A stretch of 21,334 nucleotides of DNA from a virus (Duplodnaviria; Heunggongvirae; Uroviricota; Caudoviricetes): IMG/VR virus record IMGVR_UViG_2531839668_000009. One strand, given 5' to 3'. Every line of letters begins with the position of its first letter. Position 1 is the first letter of the stretch. The position numbers and the translations under genes are program-made. Shown one piece after another: positions 8,562-17,310 of this stretch. The notes under the pieces were generated by a model, which had not been told where the DNA came from, did no database searches, and saw nothing but the letters and a program-made list of their open reading frames with translations.

Positions 8562-9039
8562 CGAATTTCTCCCGTGTAGAGGAACAGAGTTAAAAAGCCG
8601 GAAGCGGAATCAAATCACAGGATGACCATCTGCCAGTGGCTGGTCGTAAAAAAAAGGCCGCGCCATGCGCAGCCGAAAATAAAGGGATAACGATGATAGT
8701 TTGAGAAAAACAGAAATAACACTTTTGTGGCAAAGCATGGTGCCGGGTGCCTCCCGGTGAATTCAGTATCAGCACCTGAATCCGCGATTACCCCATATTC
8801 CTTCTTGCTGATTGCCCCACCGCACAGGGGGATTCACCATGCAGAAGTGTTTTTAATAAACAGCAAACAAAAAAATCAAGCATTATGCAGGCTGTTTCTT
8901 TTTATCACCGGCCACAGCAATACCATAATGCCGCAGACCAGCACCCCATCCGCCAGCACCGACATGATTCTGCTGGTGAAATCCACCATCACCACCAGAA
9001 ACAGCAGGAGTGCAGCCACAGTCAGGCGCAGTTTTACCG

Positions 9040-9641: not shown

Positions 9642-9718
9642 TGGTGCGTTGTACTGGGTTCGAACCAGTGACCGATTGCTTAGAAGGCAATTGCTCTGTC
9701 CGGCTGAGCTAAAAACGC
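9642..9718 (-). tRNA. argO: tRNA-Arg (anticodon UCU)
   Basis: Hand-folded cloverleaf on the - strand: acceptor stem with one mismatch, GGTTCGAACC T-arm, anticodon loop CTTCTAA, CCA end encoded. Symbol is by analogy with the Stx-phage ileZ-argN-argO cluster. Confidence 0.75.
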
Positions 9719-9731
9719 AGAATACCGATAA

Positions 9732-9808
9732 TGGACCGCCATCGGAGACTCGAACCCCGCGAAACCAGCTTCGAAGGCTGGCGTTCTATCCCGATGAGCT
9801 AATGGCGG
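9732..9808 (-). tRNA. argN: tRNA-Arg (anticodon UCG)
   Basis: Hand-folded: perfect 7-bp acceptor stem, T-arm CGGGG/TTCGAGT/CTCCG, anticodon loop CTTCGAA, CCA encoded; one mismatch in the D-stem. Confidence 0.7.
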
Positions 9809-9815
9809 TATGTGA

Positions 9816-9891
9816 TGGTGGCCCTTGCTGGATTTGAACCAGCGGCCTGGCGATTATGAGTCGCTCGCTCTCACCACTGAGCTAAAGGGCC
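9816..9891 (-). tRNA. ileZ: tRNA with CAU anticodon (Ile2-lysidine type or Met)
   Basis: Hand-folded: GGCCCTT acceptor, D-arm GCTC/GAGC, anticodon loop CTCATAA, T-arm GGTTCAAATCC, CCA encoded. Ile2 assignment is by analogy with ileZ of Stx-type phages. Confidence 0.7.
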
Positions 9892-13332: not shown

Positions 13333-13758
13333 TTAATGCACAGCCAGAGTGTTTCCTGCCGGGCCACCACGATTCATCTGATCGAACAGAACGATCGCTG
13401 ATGCAACGAAATCATCAATATCTTTCACCAGCCGTTCCTTCGTCTCTACCAACTCCCGAAAATAAGCGGAACTGTGGCTGCGCATTCGGGCCACCAGCGG
13501 AGGCGGCATCGCTTTTTCGATCGCTGGTAACAACGCCTGAATTTTTTTAACCGCATCAGGAGTGTCTTTCTCCACCCAGCGGAAAATTTTCTGAGTATTG
13601 CGAGCCATGGCTTCCGGATGGCTGTCGTCATACAGTTCCGGGAACGTCATTCCCAGCTCGAAATACGCTTTGGTAATTTTCGCAGCCGGTACTTTTTCGC
13701 CGTCCGGATGCGCCCAGGCATTCATCGCCATGCGGATGTGTTCATGCTTGATTTTCAT
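13333..13758 (-). CDS. YdaT-like protein (Rac-prophage YdaT family, proposed CII-like regulator)
   Basis: 141 aa, ATG with GGAGG RBS, directly downstream of the Cro-like gene as in Rac ydaS-ydaT. Confidence 0.6.
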   Translation of the reverse strand: MKIKHEHIRMAMNAWAHPDGEKVPAAKITKAYFELGMTFPELYDDSHPEAMARNTQKIFRWVEKDTPDAVKKIQALLPAIEKAMPPPLVARMRSHSSAYFRELVETKERLVKDIDDFVASAIVLFDQMNRGGPAGNTLAVH

Positions 13759-14145: not shown

Positions 14146-14517
14146 ATGGAAACAAAAGAGATTCGGCGTTTACGCCTCAAAGAGTGGTTCAAAGACAGGA
14201 CTTTGCCGCCTAAAGAGAAAAGTTACTTATCTCAGTTAATGAGCGGTAAAGCTACGTTTGGCGAAAAGGCAGCTAGACGTATTGAGCAAACATATGGGAT
14301 GCCTGGGGGGTATCTTGATATGGAACCTGAAGATACAACAGAATCTCCGTCATCAAGAACTATGGCATTAACGCCTAACCAATTGGAATTGTTGCAAATA
14401 TTTAGTGCTTTTCCTGACGCTGAGCAGCAGGAAATCATAAAAGAGCTAAGAAACAAAAAAGAGGCAATGGAAGATCTTGTTGCACGTTGGTTGGCGCGGC
14501 AGGGTCGCCGAGCCTGA
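14146..14517 (+). CDS. Prophage repressor, DicA/RacR type
   Basis: 123 aa; N-terminal HTH and a C-terminal block (LTPNQLELLQIFSAFPDAEQQEIIKELRNKKEAMEDLVARWLA) resembling the DicA C-terminus. Confidence 0.7.
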   Translation: METKEIRRLRLKEWFKDRTLPPKEKSYLSQLMSGKATFGEKAARRIEQTYGMPGGYLDMEPEDTTESPSSRTMALTPNQLELLQIFSAFPDAEQQEIIKELRNKKEAMEDLVARWLARQGRRA

Positions 14518-14547: not shown

Positions 14548-15009
14548 ATGGGCGTACTCGAAATTAGTGCTCTTAGAATTAAGATGCTTCTATTGGCAAA
14601 AGGCTGGAGCCAAGCAGAACTTGCGCGCAGAATTGGTATTGCTCAACAATCCGTCCAAAGGTGGGCTTGTGGCATCTCAAGCCCTACAGCAGCCAACCTA
14701 GATAAACTATCTGATGTGACTGGATTTCCTCAGTATTGGTTTTTCTTACCATTAAATGAAGAAAATAAGGACAGGGCACAGGATATATTAAAAATAACCC
14801 CTACGCAAAAGGAACTACTTCAAACATTTGAGGCATTTCCAGAGGAAGAGCAACAGCAAATGCTTAAAGATATGAAAGAGAAAAAAGAGACAATGGATCG
14901 TATAGTTGCAAAGTGGCTAGCAGCACAACAAAAAGTTCCTAGGCAGGATTACCAGCACTTACAAGACGAGGTTCACCATGAACACGGCCCTTTCACCAAT
15001 GGTTTCTGA
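14548..15009 (+). CDS. Second XRE-family HTH regulator, PaaR2-like, paralogous to the upstream repressor in its C-terminal domain
   Basis: 153 aa; classic XRE HTH (LAKGWSQAELARRIGIAQQSVQRW) and a C-terminal block ITPTQKELLQTFEAFPEEEQQQMLKDMKEKKETMDRIVAKWLA homologous to the upstream gene; 3' end overlaps the antitoxin start. Confidence 0.65.
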   Translation: MGVLEISALRIKMLLLAKGWSQAELARRIGIAQQSVQRWACGISSPTAANLDKLSDVTGFPQYWFFLPLNEENKDRAQDILKITPTQKELLQTFEAFPEEEQQQMLKDMKEKKETMDRIVAKWLAAQQKVPRQDYQHLQDEVHHEHGPFTNGF

Positions 15010-15169
15010 ATTTGAAACCGTCGAGCAAGAAAATAGTTATAACGAATGGCTGCGTGCAAAAGTGGCCGCAAGCCTTGCTGATCCACGTCCAGCCATTCCC
15101 CATGACGAAGTTGAACGCAGAATGGCTGAACGCTTTGCTAACATGCGCAAGGAACGGAGCAAACAGTAA
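14978..15169 (+). CDS. paaA: Antitoxin of the ParE-family toxin, PaaA2-like
   Basis: 63 aa; immediately precedes the toxin with TAA-ATG juxtaposition. Size and sequence agree with my recollection of PaaA2 from the paaR2-paaA2-parE2 modules of O157 prophages. Confidence 0.65.
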   Translation: MNTALSPMVSEFETVEQENSYNEWLRAKVAASLADPRPAIPHDEVERRMAERFANMRKERSKQ

Positions 15170-15457
15170 ATGTTACCGGTTTTATGGCTCGAAAGCGCAG
15201 ATGCCGACCTAGATAATATAACCAGCTATATTGCACGTTTTGACATAGATGCGGCAGAACGTTTGTGGAAACGCTTAAGGACTTGCGTCCTGCCATTATC
15301 TGAACATCCGTATTTATACCCGCCAAGCGACAGAGTGCCTGGTTTGCGTGAAACTGTAGCTCACCCCAATTACATCATTCTGTACCGCGTGACAATTTCA
15401 GGCATTGAAATTGTTAACGTAGTTCACGCCCGCCGACAGTTCCCTGTAACACCTTAA
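15170..15457 (+). CDS. parE: ParE/RelE-superfamily toxin
   Basis: 95 aa; typical RelE/ParE-fold pattern (…YRVTISGIEIVNVVHARRQFP). Confidence 0.75.
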   Translation: MLPVLWLESADADLDNITSYIARFDIDAAERLWKRLRTCVLPLSEHPYLYPPSDRVPGLRETVAHPNYIILYRVTISGIEIVNVVHARRQFPVTP

Positions 15458-15720: not shown

Positions 15721-15873
15721 ATGGATATGCTCAATCTTGGCAACAACGAATCTCTGGTATGCGGAGTATTCCCCAACCTGGACGGCACGTTCACCGCGAT
15801 GACGTATACCAGAAGCAAAACGTTTAAAACGGAAGCTGGCGCGCGTCGCTGGTTAGCAAGAAACTCTGACTGA
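15721..15873 (+). CDS. YdfA/YdaF-family small protein
   Basis: 50-aa ORF found by hand (below track cutoff): MDMLNLGNNESLVCGVFPNLDGTFTAMTYTRSKTFKTEAGARRWLARNSD; position matches ydfA downstream of dicA in Qin. Confidence 0.55.
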   Translation: MDMLNLGNNESLVCGVFPNLDGTFTAMTYTRSKTFKTEAGARRWLARNSD

Positions 15874-15971
15874 TGAAGGTTAGTAATTAAAGAGTTCTCC
15901 ACAGGCGAAGTGGAATACGTTCGCCGGACACGGGTAAGCATCCGGCATGCTCTTTAACAATCTGGGTATTC

Positions 15972-16418
15972 CTAACCACAAAGGAATCGCATCAATTTGG
16001 ATTTTGCAGACAGTTTCTCTTGTTGTTCTACGGAGATTCCTATTTTGATCTGGGTTTTTAAGATTGCGATATCTTTAAGCGACGACCAAATATTATCATC
16101 TGTTTTTTCCAGGAGCTTTAACTGCATTTTCAATTCCGAATCGGAATATTTTTCTGCATCATCATAAAGCTGCAGATATTCTGCGGATTTTCTCATTGCG
16201 TTACCTGACTTTTGTCCGAATCCGTAAATCGTTTGAACGGTTGCTATCACAACAATGAGAACTCCAGAAACTTCAGGAATAAATCCACCAATGACAGATG
16301 AACCGAGGATAATACTCACCACTGAGAGAAGTTTATCGAGACGACCAGTCGCTACAGAGAATAGTTGTTCAAGAAAATAACCATATAAAACCCTGTCAAG
16401 AATATCATCCCGGTCCAT
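15972..16418 (-). CDS. Hypothetical membrane protein encoded antisense within the early-left operon (SieB position)
   Basis: 148 aa, ATG with AGGTGA RBS; two hydrophobic helices (LLSVVSIILGSSVIGGFIPEVSGVLIVVIATVQTIYGF) then a charged helical C-terminal region; AT-rich relative to neighbours. Confidence 0.55.
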   Translation of the reverse strand: MDRDDILDRVLYGYFLEQLFSVATGRLDKLLSVVSIILGSSVIGGFIPEVSGVLIVVIATVQTIYGFGQKSGNAMRKSAEYLQLYDDAEKYSDSELKMQLKLLEKTDDNIWSSLKDIAILKTQIKIGISVEQQEKLSAKSKLMRFLCG

Positions 16419-16477
16419 ATATCATCACCTGCTTGTTTGATTGTTGCTGTTCCCCCTCTCCTCTGAAGGAGCTGGAG

Positions 16478-16666
16478 ATGGTTTTGGTCGAATGTTTTTC
16501 TCAGGTATATGTTTCCTGGTATTCGGAATGTCCGACCTGTCCGCAGGCTTACCAGTACCTGAACAATTCTTTTGAACCACCATATAAAACACCTTCCTGT
16601 TGTTGGGGATATCCAGATTATACAGATTTCCTGTCGTTGGGGAACGACGGAAACCACCTCGCCTGA
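16478..16666 (+). CDS. Hypothetical Cys-rich small protein (62 aa)
   Basis: Internal ATG of track ORF 16433..16666 with a GAAGGAG RBS about 8 nt upstream; contains CPTC and SCC motifs; the 3' part overlaps a 16-bp direct repeat. Confidence 0.35.
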   Translation: MVLVECFSQVYVSWYSECPTCPQAYQYLNNSFEPPYKTPSCCWGYPDYTDFLSLGNDGNHLA

Positions 16667-16893
16667 CGTGGTTAAAAGCAGGCACACAACGCGAAAGCGT
16701 ACGGCGAAGCTCTTTCCCTTAGAAGGCTTGTCGTTAGATTTCTTCGAACGTGCGCTTCCGGTTGTGGCAATCCGCGAAATGGCGCGGCGGTAAGTATGGC
16801 GGGGTTATTCCTTCCCCAGTTGAGGACACCGGGTTGTCAGGTTGACCATACGCTTAAGTGACAACCCCGCTACAACGCCCTCTGTTATCAATA

Positions 16894-16951
16894 TTCTGGT
16901 GACATTTGGCGGTATCAGTTTTACTCCGTGACTGCTCTGCCGCCCTTTTTT
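16894..16951 (+). ncRNA. dicF: DicF small regulatory RNA
   Basis: TTCTGGTGACATTTGGCGGTATCAGTTTTACTCCGTGACTGCTCTGCCGCCC followed by a T-run matches the DicF sequence as I recall it, with a terminator hairpin at its 3' end; sits upstream of dicB as in Qin. Confidence 0.8.
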
Positions 16952-17121: not shown

Positions 17122-17310
17122 ATGGAAAAGTTATCATGTAATGCCAGCACGTCTGAACTTCGTTTCGAAATTGGCGTTATCACTGGAGACAAAACATTTA
17201 TTGAAGACGCCATTAAGCAGAGAAAACTCGAGCAGGACCTGTTAAATGAAGTATGCATTCCTTCAATGCTGGCTCGTCTGGACCTGCTGCAAAAAGGATA
17301 TAAACAATGA
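17122..17310 (+). CDS. dicB: DicB cell-division inhibitor
   Basis: 62 aa with a GAGGA RBS; shares FEIGV, EDAI and SMLARL blocks with K-12 DicB as recalled; track ORF 17017..17310 starts further upstream but the internal ATG is preferred. Confidence 0.8.
   Translation: MEKLSCNASTSELRFEIGVITGDKTFIEDAIKQRKLEQDLLNEVCIPSMLARLDLLQKGYKQ

Follow-up and report, generated by a model that had tools for sequence, protein, structure and literature searches.

The DNA analysed here, 21,334 nucleotides of the IMG/VR virus record IMGVR_UViG_2531839668_000009 (the window), carries a 148-amino-acid (aa) gene that probably encodes the effector of a small moron cassette in a lambdoid prophage. On the minus strand, starting at its 5' end, the cassette consists of a sieB-type promoter within a structured element, a proline-rich micro-open reading frame (micro-ORF), the gene for a 148-aa protein with two transmembrane helices (2TM), and a terminal hairpin. 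We put at about even the chance that the cassette is a lysogen-expressed phage exclusion or abortive-infection (Abi) module. A prophage exclusion gene in the sieB slot is of a known kind; the combination of a stand-alone SLATT-like protein with a proline-rich micropeptide and a sas-type element is new. The features of the cassette, in window coordinates, are:

15972-16418, minus strand: gene for the 148-aa predicted inner-membrane protein, with an ATG start (hydropathy, AlphaFold2 (AF2) model and family profile)
16425-16583, minus strand: 52-aa hydrophilic proline-rich micro-ORF, MVVQKNCSGTGKPADRSDIPNTRKHIPEKNIRPKPSPAPSEERGNSNNQTSR, with the Shine-Dalgarno (SD) sequence AGGAAGG at 16592-16598
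16617-16622, minus strand: TATAAT, the promoter -10 hexamer as assigned by homology with P22, where the sieB promoter is mapped
16612-16685, plus strand: hairpin-plus-pseudoknot element of 74 nt (covariation and the R1 model, described below)
15948-16673, minus strand: the whole 726-bp insert (BLAST breakpoints against the phages Tritos and vB_EcoM-606R7)
15923-15946, unstranded: GC-rich hairpin GCCGGA-12 nt-TCCGGC at the distal cassette end, inside a 72-bp block common to Tritos and vB_EcoM-606R7

The 148-aa gene lies antisense between the ydfA-like gene and dicF, as an initial annotation of this stretch had described, and its product (RefSeq WP_000373334.1, 'hypothetical protein') has the two transmembrane helices and charged helical tail that were proposed there. 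Kyte-Doolittle windows place hydrophobic segments at about residues 30-48 and 50-68, joined by a 2-residue Pro-Glu loop; the N-terminal 29 aa contain 4 K/R and 6 D/E, and the C-terminal 79 aa contain 14 K/R and 12 D/E. The AF2 model built on a 110-sequence alignment is all-helical (predicted local distance difference test score, pLDDT, 88.4; predicted template modelling score, pTM, 0.78), with a long amphipathic N-terminal helix leading into TM1, followed by TM2 and four cytoplasmic helices; a first model from 7 close sequences reached a pLDDT of 59 and was set aside as too poor. The predicted topology is N-in/C-in, with almost nothing exposed to the periplasm. The gene has its own ribosome-binding site (AGGTGA at 16425-16430, 6 nt 5' of the ATG) and a GC content of 0.385, below the roughly 0.50 of its neighbours (0.503 in the ydfA-like gene, 0.516 in the distal flank) and the 0.479 of the window, both in agreement with the same annotation.

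The reading frame is also conserved as coding sequence. Comparison with an allele of about 90% identity gives a nonsynonymous divergence (dN) of 0.030 and a synonymous divergence (dS) of 0.40 (dN/dS 0.074), and the gene is under purifying selection. Its DNA is found in 89 of 5426 complete E. coli genomes, at full length in 72 of the 89, as two alleles, one of at least 99% identity to the window and one of about 90% (allele B). An exhaustive profile search of 1.84 billion cluster representatives identified 145 relatives (62 at E<=1e-10), almost all of them stand-alone and 150-180 aa long. The named members belong to Escherichia, Salmonella, Enterobacter, Citrobacter, Serratia, Providencia and Vibrio, and two deposited phages encode one (Providencia phage PSTNGR2lys, 45% identity; phage EKP1, 30%). 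The family is found in temperate phages, usually antisense in the early-left region beside the repressor (in Enterobacter, Salmonella, Serratia, Providencia, Citrobacter and E. coli as well as in Vibrio P2-like phages). Homology to a housekeeping or structural family, which the initial annotation had named as a result that would speak against it, was not found for the 148-aa protein in Pfam, PHROGs, PADLOC, PDB or NCBIfam searches; Pfam gave no match at E<=1, the PDB sequence search was likewise empty, and PHROGs returned phrog_6315 only, a family of unknown function.

The initial annotation had also proposed a single inserted gene. The insertion stands, as shown below, and the single gene does not: two genes and an RNA element make up the unit, and the 52-aa ORF upstream, the structured RNA/promoter element and the absence of ydfB and ydfC had all gone unrecorded. 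The micro-ORF ends 6 nt 5' of the 148-aa gene, with its TGA stop inside that gene's SD. In 14 of 14 distinct loci examined, the 2TM gene is preceded, at a distance of 5-19 nt, by an ORF of 22-52 aa that has a good SD, and each of these ORFs encodes a motif of the (I/V)P..RPxPxPxP type followed by a charged tail (for example MNNRPTPGSQVPYRPTTPTPRPPAKP in Serratia, MSDENTDYFEKHMPVKQRPPVPPKED in Enterobacter and MGNPDKFKDHRPPKPTPPKEDRK in Vibrio). Across these loci the partner 2TM proteins are just 20-45% identical; the peptide motif is kept, while the peptide N-terminus and the DNA are not. In phages PSTNGR2lys and EKP1 the micro-ORF is annotated as a coding sequence. The distance from motif to stop ranges from 0 to about 13 codons among the loci, the proline motif of the window lying 13-18 codons from its stop, and most micro-ORFs have a PP dipeptide 2-6 codons before the stop, whereas the window-type micro-ORF has none. 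The variable spacing and the missing Pro-Pro argue somewhat against purely geometric ribosome stalling and somewhat for a ligand peptide.

Allele B provides a natural deletion of the micro-ORF. In 5 of its 23 complete genomes, 118 bp between two CAAGCAGGTG repeats are missing, so that the proline motif is lost and the initial micro-ORF codons run on, out of frame, through the start of the 2TM gene. In this deletion lineage the segregating changes in the 2TM gene comprise 0 synonymous and 7 non-synonymous ones (L11F, V61D in TM2, A74T, I98T, E104G, Q133H and G148C), as against 10 synonymous and 8 non-synonymous in allele B with an intact micro-ORF (Fisher one-sided p = 0.013). Position 98 is I or T in the deletion lineage and M in allele B where the micro-ORF is intact, and one deletion-lineage contig (L055) has a frameshift in the 2TM gene. 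This small sample gives a hint, suggesting that the two ORFs are functionally coupled, through either relaxed selection or selection to inactivate. Alleles without the micro-ORF and yet with an apparently intact 2TM gene also persist (L043 and L061).

The structured element is located upstream of the micro-ORF and is common to the cassettes of E. coli, Salmonella, Enterobacter, Serratia and Providencia. It comprises a hairpin with a loop that reads GGGG on the plus strand and CCCC on the minus strand, and two interleaved helices, GCCTG/CAGGC and ACCAC/GTGGT, that have the topology of an H-type pseudoknot; the motif CCCCAAC(G/A)AC has one copy in the hairpin and another immediately 5' of the SD. 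Helix 1 covaries to GCCGGG/CCCGGC in Serratia and helix 2 to ACCTC/GAGGT in the Providencia phage and CTAC/GTAG in Salmonella, and the Vibrio loci have the analogous GCTGAT/ATCAGC and CCAG/CTGG. In an alignment of seven sequences, 8 pairs show compensatory double changes, neither the pairing nor the covariation is equalled in any of 500 shuffles, and slid controls give 23-47% pairing; after addition of lambda, P22 and the second copies described below (12 sequences), 92.2% of cells are paired, 7 of 15 pairs are compensatory, and again 0 of 500 shuffles do as well. Folding energies computed from single sequences lack significance (z = -1.3 and -0.9); it is covariation that supports the structure. 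In the seven-sequence alignment, 93.7% of cells are paired on the plus strand and 88.1% on the minus strand (92.9% and 80.0% within the hairpin), the difference arising from eight A.C mismatches that become G.U pairs on the plus strand. Because pairing is better there, the functional RNA is most likely read from the plus strand, in the dicB (early-left) direction and antisense to the cassette.

A covariance model built from the element (R1) matches every searched enterobacterial cassette locus of this leader type at 61-88 bits. In L059 it matches with the pseudoknot part alone (27 bits), and it gives no significant match in the Vibrio loci or in L003, L014, L058 and L060. No Rfam family matches the element, either in the window cassette or upstream of lambda and P22 sieB. 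R1 itself does match both of the latter: lambda at 34395-34467 (L017 1396-1468; 59 bits), ending 15 nt before sieB, and P22 at L066 917-989 (61 bits), directly 5' of sieB, in each case in the same orientation relative to the gene as in the window. According to the curated P22 record, the sieB promoter lies at L066 956-986 and its RNA starts at 993, inside or just 3' of the R1 match, and P22 has its own motif, CCCCTACAG, twice, in the hairpin and at the mRNA 5' end. By homology, the RNA of the cassette would start near 16610 on the minus strand; a TAnnnT hexamer occupies the -10 place in 8 of 9 cassette leaders. We had earlier taken the TATAAT at 16617-16622 for an extended -10 downstream of an mRNA leader structure, an interpretation dropped after the comparison with P22, in which the structure lies upstream of the sense RNA start. 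With the start placed there, the sense transcript would contain neither hairpin nor pseudoknot, both lying upstream of it, and they could be RNA on the antisense strand only. P22 makes a cis-antisense RNA of 105 nt, sas, which determines whether sieB is translated into SieB or Esc. As the body of such a sas-type antisense RNA the element is a good candidate, and it may equally be part of the early-left transcript; the element upstream of lambda and P22 sieB may likewise correspond to the sas antisense RNA.

Two further copies of the element precede other genes on the same strand. In phage PSTNGR2lys a second copy (L002 3916-3988) stands before the gene for a 171-aa protein with no Pfam match (4019-4534), and in an Enterobacter prophage another (L006 4870-4947) stands before an ORF of about 66 aa with a CxxC...CxxC zinc ribbon. 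These copies suggest a reusable moron expression chassis, whose apparent cargos include SieB, the unknown 171-aa protein, the zinc-ribbon micro-protein and the pair of micropeptide and 2TM protein. Literature searches found no description of the protein family, of the micropeptide, or of a shared chassis beyond P22 sieB/sas.

The analogy with the sieB slot made in the initial annotation is thereby extended from position to regulation, and it ends at the protein. Lambda sieB (J02459 34482-35036, plus strand, between ral and N) is also antisense within the early-left operon near the immunity region; both systems have the homologous upstream element that holds the mapped P22 sieB promoter and RNA start (59-61 bits), with a motif of the hairpin recurring at the 5' end of the mRNA; and both proteins combine an N-terminal 2TM hairpin with a cytoplasmic C-domain. 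SieB is regulated by the cis-antisense RNA sas. The profile search proposed in the initial annotation places the 148-aa protein outside the SieB family: homology to SieB (PF14163) was rejected, with no Pfam match at E<=1 (the positive controls, lambda and P22 SieB, score 1e-29 and 4e-29) and an hhalign probability of 0.2% between the family profile and lambda SieB. No conserved in-frame internal start was found for an Esc-like product, M75 and M98 not being kept among close homologues; P22 esc is annotated at L066 1096-1602. Moreover, the cassette has an additional proline-rich micro-ORF, which the sieB loci lack.

That the cassette is an insertion relative to related prophages, a comparison also proposed initially, is confirmed by phages Tritos and vB_EcoM-606R7 (L015 and L016), which have the order ydfA-ydfB-ydfC-dicF-dicB and no cassette. 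The genes that flank the cassette in the window are:

15721-15873, plus strand: DUF1391 (ydfA-like) ORF
16894-16945, plus strand: DicF (Rfam, 77 bits)
17122-17310, plus strand: dicB

Where the window has 15948-16673, the two phages have 30 bp. Window 15548-15866 matches their ydfA region, 15876-15947 matches the 72 bp after ydfC, and 16674-17356 matches dicF-dicB; the ydfB-ydfC segment of about 400 bp (L015 1748-2153, L016 1553-1958) is not in the window, the junction lying at 15866-15876. Thus ydfB and ydfC, which in related phages and Qin-type operons both sit between ydfA and dicF, are missing from this prophage. In another E. coli prophage (L014) these two anchors enclose a family member of 25% identity together with a micro-ORF of its own, and L060, which has the dicB-side arrangement of L014, likewise holds a 25%-identical allele in this slot. 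Because the same anchors hold alleles of 25% identity, the slot is a hotspot of cassette exchange, and swapping of such divergent alleles is typical of conflict genes. In L014 the insert is flanked by direct repeats of the GCCGGA-N12-TCCGGC hairpin (about 3799-3828 and 4485-4572); in the window this hairpin is found at the distal cassette end only, where R1 also gives a weak match (14 bits, 15880-15948, plus strand) that covers it. The distal hairpin may be a bidirectional terminator or a recombination anchor for cassette exchange.

In sequence and fold, the family of the 148-aa protein shows a weak yet consistent similarity to SLATT proteins. These are predicted to be the pore-forming effectors of defence systems, among them DRT10, in which a reverse transcriptase (RT) and a non-coding RNA control them. 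When 110 family members were scanned singly against NCBIfam, 44 matched SLATT_4 (best 2e-5), 14 matched SLATT_1 and 3 matched SLATT_fungal, all below cut-off, and no unrelated family was matched by more than 6 of the 110; Pfam SLATT_4 matches 1 of 110 (E = 0.04). Member P0164 aligns to positions 20-126 of 132 in SLATT_1 and 18-137 of 154 in SLATT_4 (E about 5e-5). A Foldseek search of viral predicted structures (BFVD) returned top matches that are mostly annotated as SLATT (probability 0.99-1.0, TMq 0.5-0.71). Like SLATT proteins, the family members have about 150 aa and two adjacent transmembrane helices flanked by cytoplasmic helices (by hydropathy and the AF2 model), and they occur in the conflict contexts of mobile elements. 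Known SLATT effectors differ in using a signal-producing partner (SMODS, SLOG, RT or TIR), the only conserved partner in the cassette being a proline-rich peptide of 22-52 aa, and the regulatory context of the cassette is that of a sieB-type promoter and antisense element. From profiles and models we regard the family as SLATT-like, a probable remote relative and certainly an architectural analogue, and do not file it as a member.

If the cassette is an exclusion module, it could operate as follows. With the early-left (dicB) operon repressed in the lysogen, transcription of the cassette would come from its own promoter, like that of sieB in P22 and lambda. The 2TM protein would reside in the inner membrane, both ends cytoplasmic, in an inactive state or at a low level, until infection by a second phage caused it to oligomerise or open, collapsing membrane integrity or energisation and aborting the infection. 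The proline-rich peptide might be a labile inhibitor or partner of the effector, or the product of a translational leader that sets its dose. Upon induction of the resident prophage, strong early-left transcription would pass antisense through the cassette and yield a structured antisense RNA over promoter and leader; this RNA would shut the module off and confer self-immunity, as sas RNA and Esc do for P22 SieB. A comparable outcome is known from lambda RexA/RexB, a lysogen-expressed, membrane-acting abortive-infection system whose activity is set by the ratio of its two products. The likeness extends to being an abortive-infection system of a lambdoid prophage; rexAB has no sequence or architectural similarity to the cassette and is co-transcribed with cI, and RexB has four transmembrane helices.

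A bolder version of this proposal, which we put forward tentatively and think rather doubtful, is that the sieB upstream region, promoter and hairpin-pseudoknot antisense RNA together, is a portable chassis from which lambdoid and other temperate phages express interchangeable exclusion cargos. The pair would then be a new kind of Abi system, with a stand-alone SLATT-like pore whose gate is the genetically coupled proline-rich micropeptide, as inhibitor or sensor, in place of a nucleotide messenger. Should the cassette exclude phages, it would be a compact and widespread prophage defence module in the Enterobacterales and Vibrio, present in E. coli O157, O145 and related pathogenic strains; its effector would be the first SLATT-like membrane protein to work without an enzymatic signal generator, and a role would be found for a conserved proline-rich micropeptide of a kind that gene callers usually miss. 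The covariance model of about 74 nt offers a search handle for more exclusion genes in the sieB slot of temperate phages, and the chassis ties 30-year-old sieB/sas regulation to a broader class of cassettes.

Several results weigh against the exclusion module and its SLATT-like effector. The 148-aa protein itself scores E = 0.011 and 15.6 bits on NCBIfam SLATT_4, for which the cut-off is 55; even the best members reach 23-24 bits on the SLATT models, under the curated cut-offs, and the Foldseek E-values to SLATT-annotated proteins are just 0.02-0.1. No solved SLATT structure was found in the PDB for comparison, and searches with the family profile of 110 sequences or with P0164, the bridging member, brought up no protein for which Pfam has a precomputed SLATT domain; as these profile searches reach no annotated SLATT protein, membership is not claimed. 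No SMODS, SLOG, TIR or RT neighbour is present in the window or in 14 related loci, and PADLOC-DB v2 (2023) has 0 families matching the 148-aa protein at E<=1. A generic sigma-70 scan did not call the cassette promoter, which has a poor -35, and no canonical sigma-70 promoter was found for a separate antisense RNA. Finally, recent variants of the window-type allele number 3 synonymous and 7 non-synonymous, some at invariant residues, and this excess leaves the decay signal of the deletion lineage suggestive and nothing firmer.

Part of the same evidence would fit an addiction module akin to type I toxin-antitoxin systems, in which a 2TM membrane toxin is translated in coupling with the micro-ORF, as in hok/mok, and repressed by a cis-antisense RNA, so that the cassette would chiefly serve post-segregational killing or maintenance of the prophage, exclusion being a by-product if it occurs at all. 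As in hok/mok/sok, the membrane protein is downstream of a leader ORF and tightly coupled to it, the micro-ORF stop overlapping its SD, and a structured RNA is favoured on the strand antisense to leader and SD; the apparent decay of the 2TM gene in the micro-ORF deletion lineage points the same way. We nevertheless consider such a module unlikely. Type I toxins have fewer than 60 aa, whereas the 148-aa effector is three times larger and has a large cytoplasmic domain (a 79-aa soluble tail); the leader ORF of the cassette does not overlap the effector gene, and its peptide motif is itself conserved; the antisense transcript is a candidate one, for which no separate promoter was found; L043 and L061 keep an apparently intact 2TM gene without the micro-ORF; and in P22 and lambda the homologous chassis serves the known exclusion gene sieB. 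A block at the entry step, in which the protein would prevent DNA injection or block a membrane receptor of incoming phages while the cell survives, would bring the cassette closer to P22 SieA, T4 Imm and HK97 gp15, which are exclusion proteins of that kind. A small prophage inner-membrane protein in a moron slot with no enzymatic partner nearby would fit such a function, yet the periplasmic loop of about 2 residues leaves little surface for an ejection apparatus, nearly all the mass being cytoplasmic, and the protein resembles SLATT effectors rather than the known injection blockers. Ranade and Poteete reportedly found in 1993 that SieB acts post-injection, aborting lytic development; a protein on the same regulatory chassis is thus said to act after entry. 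We judge an entry block quite improbable, slightly more so than the next alternative.

That alternative, which we also rate as improbable, gives the protein an accessory role other than defence, in lysis timing, membrane stress or lysogenic physiology, and makes the micro-ORF purely a cis-acting polyproline translational leader sensitive to elongation factor P (EF-P). The N-in/C-in topology with two transmembrane helices matches class II holins or antiholins, and a ribosome stalled at the PP dipeptide found shortly before the stop in most micro-ORFs could cover the downstream SD. On the other hand, the window already has a cassette of holin, lysozyme and Rz elsewhere, whereas the 148-aa gene, whose product is twice the size of a holin, lies outside the late operon and the lysis cassette, antisense in the early-left region; the window micro-ORF, with no PP and its motif far from the stop, shows that a stalling geometry is not conserved; and exchange of 25%-identical alleles in one slot is the behaviour of conflict genes. 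The prophage does contain several pseudogenes, an IS3 element truncates the ORF in O145 strains, and some alleles carry a frameshift or changes that disrupt a transmembrane helix, as would be expected of a decaying, functionless remnant in a cryptic prophage. We disfavour this explanation and think it very improbable in view of the dN/dS of 0.074 between alleles, the intact ORF in 72 of the 89 carrying E. coli genomes, and a family that spans the Enterobacterales and Vibrio with length and partner ORF conserved. The exclusion module accordingly stays our preferred account of the cassette.

The window is a 100% match to a lambdoid prophage beside yccA in E. coli O157:H16 strain 98-3133. Around the 148-aa gene the order runs from cro-like and YdaT-like genes on the minus strand through two helix-turn-helix (HTH) repressor-like genes in tandem (14146-14517 and 14548-15009) to relB and relE, a toxin-antitoxin pair of the ParE family at 14978-15457, between the repressor-like genes and ydfA. 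Next come the DUF1391 (ydfA-like) gene, the 148-aa gene, DicF, dicB, a DUF1482 gene, a large exonuclease, xis and int. The class II holin, lysozyme and Rz genes are located away from the 148-aa gene. Upstream of the late/lysis region there are a match to the small RNA STnc100 (101 bits) and three tRNA genes, at 8699-8871 and 9645-9891, both on the minus strand. A 73-aa ORF at 16572-16793 (plus strand) was dismissed as spurious, as it has no family match and crosses the insert boundary.

Variants of the locus were seen in other genomes. E. coli O145 RM9872 (L004) and roughly a dozen O145 genomes have an IS3-family element in place of all sequence upstream of window 16327; it truncates the 148-aa gene after about 30 codons, with the micro-ORF, RNA element, dicF and dicB intact. 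The locus of the 90% allele (L005) has an extra 124-aa ORF on the plus strand between ydfA and the cassette. In L020 (IMGVR_UViG_2698536392_000012), a 9-bp tandem duplication, CTGTATAAT-CTGTATAAT, falls exactly at the -10 hexamer (about 3040-3060). R1 gives one further weak match in the window, at 13533-13601 (minus strand; 17.5 bits, E about 0.01) in the region of the YdaT-like gene, which recurs in Tritos and vB_EcoM-606R7 and is probably due to chance. In a different type of phage (L058 3001-3456), a family member and its micro-ORF are co-directional between an RNase T-like exonuclease gene and baseplate genes; the cassette therefore occurs beyond the sieB slot. In the Vibrio P2-like prophages with the cassette, the gene beside the CI repressor is SNIPE/T5orf172 in one (L013 6233-7816) and GmrSD_N followed by HEPN in a second (L057 5207-6465), and the immunity region of these prophages looks like a defence hotspot.

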